Assembly: GCA_000004985.1 (NCBI GenBank)
Contig: GG739522.1
DNA length: 1,162 nt
Source: Naegleria gruberi
Lineage: Eukaryota
Reading direction: 5' to 3' (one strand)
Part shown: in pieces, positions 1 to 1,162 of the stretch
Position numbering within the stretch: position 1 is the first letter of the stretch
Layout of the letters: each line of letters begins with the position of its first letter
Notes under the pieces: generated by a model
What the model saw: the letters and a program-made list of their open reading frames with translations, nothing else
What the model was told of the DNA's origin: nothing
The model's database searches: none
Translations under genes and position numbers: made by a program

Positions 1-96
1 CCAACACAGAATATGGTGGGCGTTCAAATTGATCAAAATCTTCAGGATACTGATAAGTGGAATTAATATGGACCTTATCAGAGTCATAGATATATC
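1..96 (-). CDS. Exon 2 (partial, continues past the window start) of the DNase I-family nuclease.
   Basis: After the proposed splice, the frame reads G-YIYDSDKVHINSTYQYPEDFDQFERPPYSVL with no stop for 32 codons in AT-rich DNA. It aligns to DNASE1L3 ([41 protein letters not shown]) and to DNase I (YLFVYRPDQVSAVDSYYY...FNREPAIVRF). The Y.Y...V....Y.Y and F.REP..V spacing is conserved. Confidence 0.65.
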
Positions 97-145
97 CTAC
101 ATATTGATATTAACACACAAAAACATTGAAAATTTCACAACATAC
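97..145 (-). other. Spliceosomal intron of 49 nt, phase 1, with GTATGT donor and TAG acceptor, inside the DNase I-like gene.
   Basis: Minus-strand sequence: GTATGTTGTGAAATTTTCAATGTTTTTGTGTGTTAATATCAATATGTAG. The donor is GTATGT (plus 145..140) and the acceptor AG is at plus 98..97. Splicing G146 to g96-a95 gives a Gly codon and restores a frame with no stops that continues the DNase1L homology. A possible branch-like TGTTAAT / TCAAT lies 10-20 nt upstream of the acceptor. Confidence 0.6.
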
Positions 146-572
146 CATATTGTTCCTTACTACTTGTTCTTCCCAATCTCAAACTTAAAGATATTTGGAA
201 TTTTCTACCAGCACTGTTTTTGCTCTCACTCAATAGTTGAAGTAATTCCTTAATGGCTTCTCCAGATGCATCTCTAATTTCCATGATCAATGTCAGATCA
301 CATTGTGAGAGAATTTTCAATAGAACATCAACAACTTGATTATTTTGCATCTTTTTCTGACCAAATACTTGGACATTGAAACTGCAGTATGTTAAATCGG
401 TGCTTGATTGTTTGGCAGTTGACTTGTTGATAATGGAAAGGTTTAGAGTAAGAACTGGATACGAAAGAAGGGAAAGAATCAAGAGTAAAGAGGTGGTGAG
501 TAAGAAGGTGCGACTCGTGGAGATCATTGTTAGCTGTTTTTTTAATTTGTGAAAATCATGCAGTACTGACAT
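146..572 (-). CDS. Exon 1 of a DNase I-family (DNase1/DNase1L-like) secreted deoxyribonuclease. Start is the ATG at 572 or the in-frame ATG at 527. The exon ends at a GTATGT splice donor, with G146 as the first base of a split Gly codon.
   Basis: The 145-aa minus ORF from the track has a hydrophobic signal-peptide-like segment (MISTSRTFLLTTSLLLILSLLS). The following segment, LTYCSFNVQVFGQKKMQNNQVVDVLLKILSQCDLTLIMEIRDASGEAIKELL ... LGRTSSKEQY, aligns without gaps to human DNase I (LKIAAFNIQTFGETKMSNATLVSYIVQILSRYDIALVQEVRDSHLTAVGKLL ... LGRNSYKERY). It also matches DNASE1L3 (SFNVRSFGESK...VMEIKD...[13 protein letters not shown]). The catalytic Glu39, DNA-contact Arg41 and Glu78 equivalents are conserved (MEIRD, KEQ). 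The ORF's apparent stop (TGA 135-137) lies just inside the GTATGT donor, so the exon ends at 146. I derived the coordinates by reverse-complementing the window myself. Confidence 0.82.
527..572 (-). other. A 15-codon N-terminal extension (MSVLHDFHKLKKQLT) between the first ATG (572) and a second in-frame ATG (527) that directly precedes the signal-peptide hydrophobic core. The true initiation codon is uncertain.
   Basis: The first ATG has a weak context (tttctgcATGt, T at -3). The second has an A-rich fungal/yeast-like context (cagctaacaATGa, A at -3). A signal peptide normally begins within a few residues of the initiator Met, which favours 527. Confidence 0.4.
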
Positions 573-600
573 GCAGAAAAGATCTTTAGGTCTGGATTTT

Positions 601-658
601 TTAATTACGAAACCAAGGTGGTAACGACATCGTAACGGGGGGGTGGTTCGTAATTACT
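601..658. promoter_or_regulatory. GC-rich imperfect inverted repeat (about a 12-13 bp stem and 30-nt spacer), located 30-85 bp upstream of the DNase start codon. Candidate cis-regulatory palindrome or 5'-UTR stem-loop.
   Basis: TAATTACGAAACC (602-614) pairs with GGTTCGTAATTA (645-656) with a 1-nt bulge. The spacer AAGGTGGTAACGACATCGTAACGGGGGGGT contains the direct repeat GTAACG twice (621-626 and 632-637, 11 bp apart), flanking GGTGG motifs (617-621 and 642-646) and a G7 run (637-643). It is the only GC-rich island in an otherwise AT-rich intergenic region. Confidence 0.3.
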
Positions 659-661
659 GGT

Positions 662-700
662 AAATGACAGGAAAAATTAAAATTTTTGATAATTTTAAAA
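662..700 (-). promoter_or_regulatory. AT-rich tract with AAAATTTT / TTTTAAAA palindromes and a GATAA motif, 90-130 bp upstream of the DNase ATG. Possible core-promoter or TATA-like region for the minus-strand gene.
   Basis: Plus strand: taaatgacaggaaaaattaaaatttttgataattttaaaaata. Minus sense: TATTTTTAAAATTATCAAAAATTTTAATTTTTCC. There is no canonical TATAAA, so this is weak and positional only. Confidence 0.15.
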
Positions 701-864
701 ATAACCTGCCCGCTAAACCCTTTTCGCAAATGCTGGCTTGACTTTTAACGATTTTTTGTTAATGGATTTTTGCGATGTGAGCGAAATGTAGAATTGCCCA
801 AGCTCGACTTGTAAATTTTTTCGAAAGTATTTGAAATTTCACCAAGTCTTGAAATTAATAAAGT

Positions 865-1161
865 CTATATTAAATGTATTGATTGTTGTAATGAACTGGA
901 ATAGGCCTGTTTGGAAGGGTCAAGAATAACACACGGAACCTTTTTTCCTTGATATCTCAATGATACGTTTCGGATCTTCAATAGCAAGCTGTATTGAATA
1001 AAAGTCATTAGAAAAGGACTCAACCTGACAAACCTTCTTGGTTTTTGTATCGAAGCATCTCGTTTCTTACTCACTACATAGTTGCCAGCAATACATTGTC
1101 CTGAATTTAAGGGTTCATTCAGATCAAGAAGATCACATAATTGACAAGTATCATAATACGT
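865..1161 (-). CDS. Unidentified open reading frame, open to the right window edge and ending at TAG 867..865. Possibly the 3' terminal coding part of a neighbouring upstream gene on the same strand.
   Basis: 99 codons without a stop in AT-rich DNA: TYYDTCQLCDLLDLNEPLNSGQCIAGNYVVSKKRDASIQKPRRFVRLSPFLMTFIQYSLLLKIRNVSLRYQGKKVPCVILDPSKQAYSSSLQQSIHLI*. The M of the track ORF at 1074 is actually a GTG codon, and the frame is open upstream of it. I recognise no domain. GTGAGTAAG (plus 1074..1066) resembles a 5' splice donor, so the exon structure could differ. Confidence 0.25.
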   Translation of the reverse strand, partial: TYYDTCQLCDLLDLNEPLNSGQCIAGNYVVSKKRDASIQKPRRFVRLSPFLMTFIQYSLLLKIRNVSLRYQGKKVPCVILDPSKQAYSSSLQQSIHLI

Positions 1162-1162
1162 A

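Follow-up and report, generated by a model that had tools for sequence, protein, structure and literature searches.

The window, which is the entire 1162-bp unplaced scaffold analysed here from the Naegleria gruberi NEG-M assembly (Heterolobosea), carries on its minus strand the 5′ part of a DNase I-family gene. We hold with high confidence that it represents a near-identical second copy of the gene catalogued as Ngru_D3, most likely an unmerged haplotype. A complete and correctly spliced version of that gene is already catalogued at another place in this assembly, which makes the window copy redundant as well as partial: the scaffold end cuts the gene after codon 159 and only its 5′ part is encoded. 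The public model on this scaffold, a 130-aa “predicted protein” (EFC35237.1/XP_002667981.1, NAEGRDRAFT_77109), is a truncated, mis-modelled and redundant version of NAEGRDRAFT_62143 and, for the purposes of annotation cleanup, should not count as a separate “predicted protein”. The window gene is therefore already known, and no new lineage, domain architecture or mechanism is added by it. As to the lineage, the original prediction had guessed at a possibly fungal source, which the heterolobosean origin of the scaffold contradicts.

Relation of the window to Ngru_D3

An exact sequence look-up identified the full-length twin as NAEGRDRAFT_62143 (XP_002682383.1, EFC49639.1, UniProt D2V023), which lies on a 941,567-bp N. 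gruberi scaffold and bears the UniRef name “Deoxyribonuclease”. In the supplement of a 2022 survey of the DNase family, XP_002682383.1 is listed as Ngru_D3 (Mori et al. 2022, PMC9208542). The nucleotide comparison with the main locus was made with a 6098-bp metagenome contig, L001 (ENA ERZ929261/run ERR1078381), the spliced product of which is identical to the NEG-M protein Ngru_D3, with no residue differing, and clusters with XP_002667981.1, one residue apart. As the L001 protein is that of Ngru_D3, the sampled metagenome must have contained an N. gruberi-like amoeba; no mention was found in the literature searched of PRJEB11402, the project to which this metagenome belongs. On L001, exon 2 runs 155 codons further than in the window, to a TAA stop, giving a protein of 314 aa. 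Its flanking neighbours there are a DUF4241 gene and a RhoGAP-WW gene.

The window product and Ngru_D3 share 158 of 159 residues, the single change being Ser100 in the window and Asn100 in Ngru_D3. At the nucleotide level, coding sequence and intron differ from L001 by 2 substitutions in 527 nt, a synonymous one and one at position 229 that accounts for Ser100 (AGT) in place of Asn100 (AAT), and the intron itself is 100% identical between the window and the main-locus copy. Pairwise alignment of the whole of positions 1..638 with L001 gives 96% identity, with a 20-nt indel and a few changes in the 5′ leader. The two copies have the same exon structure, and the 111 nt 5′ of the ATG (528..638, minus strand), which comprise the 5′ untranslated and promoter-proximal region common with the main locus, are equal bar that one indel. 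By contrast, the 20-nt 5′ insertion with an extra ATG is peculiar to the window copy, and the sequence past position 638 is unrelated. Contamination was considered as a source of the scaffold and is ruled out by the 99.6% identity of the gene to one on the 941-kb N. gruberi scaffold.

Identity of the encoded protein

Searched against the PDB, the 159-aa spliced product aligns with residues 19-135 of DNase1L3 (7kiu) at an E value of 2.7e-19, far beyond what chance would give. This match covers about 114 residues, extending the likeness to DNase I and DNase1L3 that had been claimed for about 85. DNase I chains (4awn, 1dnk) are matched with E values from 2e-13 to 2e-12, and the sole other PDB match with E < 1, CID7 (E 0.2), is at chance level. 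For the full-length twin, the alignment with structures of DNase1L3 and DNase I extends over the entire domain (residues 44-308, E 4e-49 to 1.4e-44). Barring the chance-level CID7, the PDB matches of both the fragment and the full-length protein are DNase I and DNase1L3 chains only, and the named homologues returned by the protein search are DNase-1, DNase-1-like or DNase gamma. Judged by this homology, the window holds the 5′ part of a canonical DNase I-family gene and not of another EEP branch, in agreement with the original prediction. The comparison with the Pfam profile Exo_endo_phos (PF03372), which had been suggested as a check, fell short for the window fragment and succeeded for the full-length twin. 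As a truncated third of a domain, the fragment reaches 16.3 bits, under the 24.5-bit gathering cut-off, and the twin scores 32.3 bits, above it, over profile positions 1-225.

Residues were mapped in an alignment of 11 sequences, bovine DNase I included (alignment A1). The predicted motifs are all present in the product, as SFNVQVFG, MEIRD and LGRTSSKEQY, and bear the equivalents of bovine Asn7, of Glu39, Arg41 and Asp42, and of Glu78, respectively. In the window, these correspond to Asn51 (377..375), Glu83, Arg85 and Asp86 (281..270) and Glu125 (155..153), to which Arg153 (bovine Arg111; 22..20) is added in exon 2, all on the minus strand. Every one of these N-lobe residues is thus found in the window product, and in A1 they are invariant except for Arg41, which is Lys in one vertebrate DNase1L3. 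The C-lobe residues are absent from the window, as the scaffold ends first. Nevertheless, the equivalents of His134, Asp168, Asp212 and His252 that were to be looked for past position 1 are present in the full-length copy, where His186, Asp224, Asn226, Asp267, Asp301 and His302 correspond to bovine His134, Asp168, Asn170, Asp212, Asp251 and His252, and Cys229 and Cys264 to the Cys173-Cys209 pair. They are found in the motifs GIHTSP (His134), GDFNAGCSY (Asp168, Asn170 and Cys173), CPYDRF (Cys209 and Asp212) and SDHFP (Asp251 and His252).

Compared with vertebrate DNase I and DNase1L3, the Naegleria enzyme has the same domain end to end, with 37-39% identity over the 159 residues of the window (A1), all catalytic and metal residues, the essential Cys173-Cys209 pair and an N-terminal signal-like sequence. 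There are, however, several differences from vertebrate DNase I. Tyr76 is replaced by Ser and Arg9 by Gln, as they also are in invertebrate and other heterolobosean members, and the loop formed by Cys101-Cys104 is missing. The positions that contact actin are changed (Glu13 to Gln, Tyr65 to Ile, Val67 to Leu and Ala114 to Tyr) and, consequently, inhibition by actin is not expected. Additionally, Ca2+ site I is partly replaced (Asp201 to Gly and Thr203 to Met). Unlike DNase1L3, the Naegleria enzyme does not end in a basic C-terminal tail.

Gene model and intron

The coordinates given in the original prediction for the ORF, the intron and the TGA were re-derived on the minus strand and all of them are correct. 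The ORF spans 572..135 and has a second ATG at 527. Exon 1 (146..527) starts at Met1, ends with the first base of codon 128 and was delimited by translation, PDB alignments and residue mapping; it is followed by a phase 1 intron of 49 nt (97..145, GTATGT...ATGTAG), while exon 2 starts with the last two bases of codon 128 and continues through Leu159 (1..96), as seen from translation and alignment. Removal of 145..97 joins ...SSKEQYG to YIYDSDKVHINSTYQYPEDFDQFERPPYSVL in frame, and exon 2 leaves the window at position 1. The in-frame TGA at 137..135 lies inside the intron and is what ends the unspliced NCBI model, whose last residues are ...LGRTSSKEQYGML; up to ..EQYG, XP_002667981.1 equals the exon 1 product.

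Taking together the annotation of the twin copy, the orthologues and the in-frame homology, we conclude from sequence comparison that the 49-nt intron is real. The annotated product of the main-locus copy is spliced at exactly the site of the window intron, so that the predicted GTATGT intron is already annotated in the full-length gene, and the orthologues share both its site and its phase. The orthologue introns measure 49 nt in Naegleria lovaniensis, 47 nt in Naegleria fowleri and 49 nt in Willaertia magna (loci L003 6001..6982, L004 3001..4007 and L005 3001..3913); all three lie directly after the EQY codons, at the same position and in phase 1, and each annotated product requires one intron. 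A D3-type DNase, for which secretion is predicted, is conserved together with its intron in Willaertia and across Naegleria, the pathogen N. fowleri included. It could still be argued that the annotated unspliced model is correct and that the locus makes just a 130-aa secreted peptide, ending in ..EQYGML and without nuclease function, as the NCBI/JGI model XP_002667981.1 matches the ORF exactly and the TGA at 137..135 is in frame. We consider this very improbable: DNase I homology runs on in frame past the splice junction, and splicing regains 32 residues, among which Arg153 and Pro155 fall on positions that are invariant in DNase I, the twin locus carries the spliced annotation, the intron is kept in four species and the 130-aa product would be left without both catalytic histidines.

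With regard to the start codon, an insertion of about 20 nt (about 553..575) relative to the main allele holds an in-frame upstream ATG (572..570). If used, this ATG would place MSVLHDFHKLKKQLT before the signal sequence. Since it sits in an insertion without counterpart in L001, the ATG at 527 is the likely start, and the ATG at 572 is probably not used.

N-terminus and proposed action of the enzyme

The product from the ATG at 527 begins with MISTSRTFLLTTSLLLILSLLSYPVLT and has a hydrophobic N-terminus. Residues 1-27 (MISTSR / TFLLTTSLLLILSLLS / YPVLT; 447..527, minus strand) are predicted to form a signal peptide or signal anchor according to Kyte-Doolittle hydropathy and a -3/-1 heuristic, which assign residues 7-22 to the hydrophobic core and give Ser22 and Thr27 as the residues after which cleavage might occur. 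All homologues start with a comparable hydrophobic stretch. Secretion is thus a prediction from these heuristics and, as the uncharged stretch is long (28 residues), the N-terminus may act instead as a signal anchor. A regular-expression scan detected, in the linker from the hydrophobic N-terminus to the catalytic domain (420..443), the two N-glycosylation sequons that had been predicted before the domain, NLS at residue 29 (443..435) and NKS at residue 34 (428..420), and, in exon 2, a further one, NST, at residue 139 (64..56), all on the minus strand. Glycosylation may occur at these sequons.

The two-histidine mechanism of DNase I is established chemistry. According to the model that we propose by homology, the full-length 314-aa protein would enter the secretory pathway via its N-terminal hydrophobic signal and fold as a DNase I alpha/beta sandwich, held by a disulfide equivalent to Cys173-Cys209. 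The enzyme would then cleave double-stranded DNA with the aid of divalent metals: the equivalents of Glu39, Asp168 and Asn7 would be involved in metal and phosphate binding, and those of His134 and His252 would serve as general acid and base, oriented by the equivalents of Glu78 and Asp212. In a bacterivorous amoeba, a plausible role for such an enzyme would be the digestion of prey or environmental DNA. A literature search for a studied Naegleria enzyme of the DNase I family returned DNase I as a reagent only and found no functional study.

The upstream region and the nature of the scaffold

Similarity to the main locus stops abruptly at 638/639, at a run of seven C (643..637, minus strand), and a perfect 10-nt inverted repeat, TAATTACGAA / TTCGTAATTA (602-611 / 647-656), has one arm on each side of the break. 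The break could be the edge of an indel, the end of a mobile element or an assembly join. In blastn and tblastn searches, positions 639..1162 resembled neither the main locus nor any other sequence searched, and six-frame tblastn against the fetched loci gave no match past 638. The upstream neighbour of the gene on L001, the DUF4241 gene, is without counterpart in the window. There is no tRNA in 639..1162, and the only Rfam match there, snoZ196, is at chance level (24.9 bits, with the gathering score at 55). The repeats found in this region are short, none of them beyond chance. A minus-strand ORF (865..1161; TYYDTCQLCDLLDLNEPLNSGQCIAGNYV...) runs off the window end and contains a possible GTGAGT...CAG intron; with or without this putative intron, it has neither a Pfam match nor a protein homologue. 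Exact-pattern scans of the metagenome collection for this upstream ORF and for the 638/639 junction were both empty.

N. gruberi has been described as heterozygous (PMC9928731), and the most economical reading of the scaffold is that of an unmerged alternative haplotype, a recent duplicate or an assembly join being less likely. On this reading, the region would be heterozygous, its two haplotypes would differ in structure upstream, and the assembler would have left them unmerged. The abrupt end at 638/639, without decay, and the 524 nt left unmatched upstream also fit a duplicate or a mis-join. For instance, the scaffold might derive from a second locus, produced by a very recent segmental duplication of Ngru_D3, in its 5′ part or as a whole, beside a different upstream sequence. 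The sharp stop at 638/639 and the missing DUF4241 gene point in this direction, and the copies can be told apart by the 20-nt indel and a non-synonymous change. However, alleles in a heterozygous genome (PMC9928731) would be expected to differ in this way, by 2 substitutions in 527 nt with the intron left 100% identical. Large indels between haplotypes would look alike, and independent flanks on both sides could not be seen on so short a scaffold, so that we regard a duplication as unlikely. If it were true, N. gruberi would have a fourth DNase1-family copy, possibly differently regulated or a gene fragment, and the expansion of secreted nucleases would be ongoing in this bacterivorous amoeba.

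It is also conceivable, if slightly less probable, that the scaffold is an assembly artefact in which a homopolymer led to the fusion of Ngru_D3 reads with unrelated sequence from N. gruberi, leaving 1..638 as the only meaningful unit. The coincidence of the break with the C7 run and the short inverted repeat, the tiny size of the scaffold and the lack of matches and of a recognisable gene in 639..1162 would all agree with such a join. Against it, the SNPs and the indel within 1..638 show that the reads came from a template distinct from the main locus, the AT-rich composition found throughout the window is even across the 638/639 junction and an inverted repeat of 10 nt can be expected by chance. 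An unmerged haplotype remains our preferred reading of the window.

Relatives in Heterolobosea and beyond

DNase1 genes outside animals have been reported in a few unicellular eukaryotes, and three DNase1 proteins of N. gruberi NEG-M are given in the supplementary tables of the same survey (PMC9208542). At least three DNase1-family genes are catalogued for N. gruberi, Ngru_D3 among them, and the family is broad in Heterolobosea, with at least two copies each in N. lovaniensis, W. magna and N. fowleri and three in Acrasis kona. A DNase I-type enzyme would have been notable in this genome according to the original prediction, a view that does not hold given these catalogued genes and the relatives found throughout Heterolobosea.

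In a neighbour-joining tree, Ngru_D3 forms a clade with the sequences of N. lovaniensis and N. fowleri (49 of 50 NJ bootstraps), W. magna stands next to this D3 clade, and a second heterolobosean clade contains Ngru_D1 and Ngru_D2. The D3 orthologues (N. lovaniensis P0011, with 50% identity, N. fowleri XP_044568595.1 and W. magna P0013) share with Ngru_D3 the intron site and a ..NW C-terminal motif. By contrast, the D1/D2 group, with N. fowleri P0024, N. lovaniensis P0040 and W. magna P0039, is a separate clade. These last three proteins end in hydrophobic C-terminal tails that recall the membrane-anchored DNase1L1 of vertebrates, and in Ngru_D1 and Ngru_D2 the C-terminal extensions are longer. 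In N. fowleri and N. lovaniensis, the D3 orthologue lies between an EamA gene and a transketolase gene, while the neighbourhood of the N. gruberi locus differs.

Two further observations concern individual members of the family. Ngru_D2 (XP_002682045.1), as printed in the FASTA of PMC9208542, is without the LGR..KEQY segment that bears the Glu78 equivalent, and its gene model is probably mis-spliced. In bacteria, P0064, P0054 and P0090 contain, after an N-terminal extension of about 190 aa, a DNase I-family domain that is about 41% identical to the Naegleria enzyme. The source of P0064 is a Myxococcota metagenome-assembled genome, and these bacterial relatives hint at transfer between domains of life.
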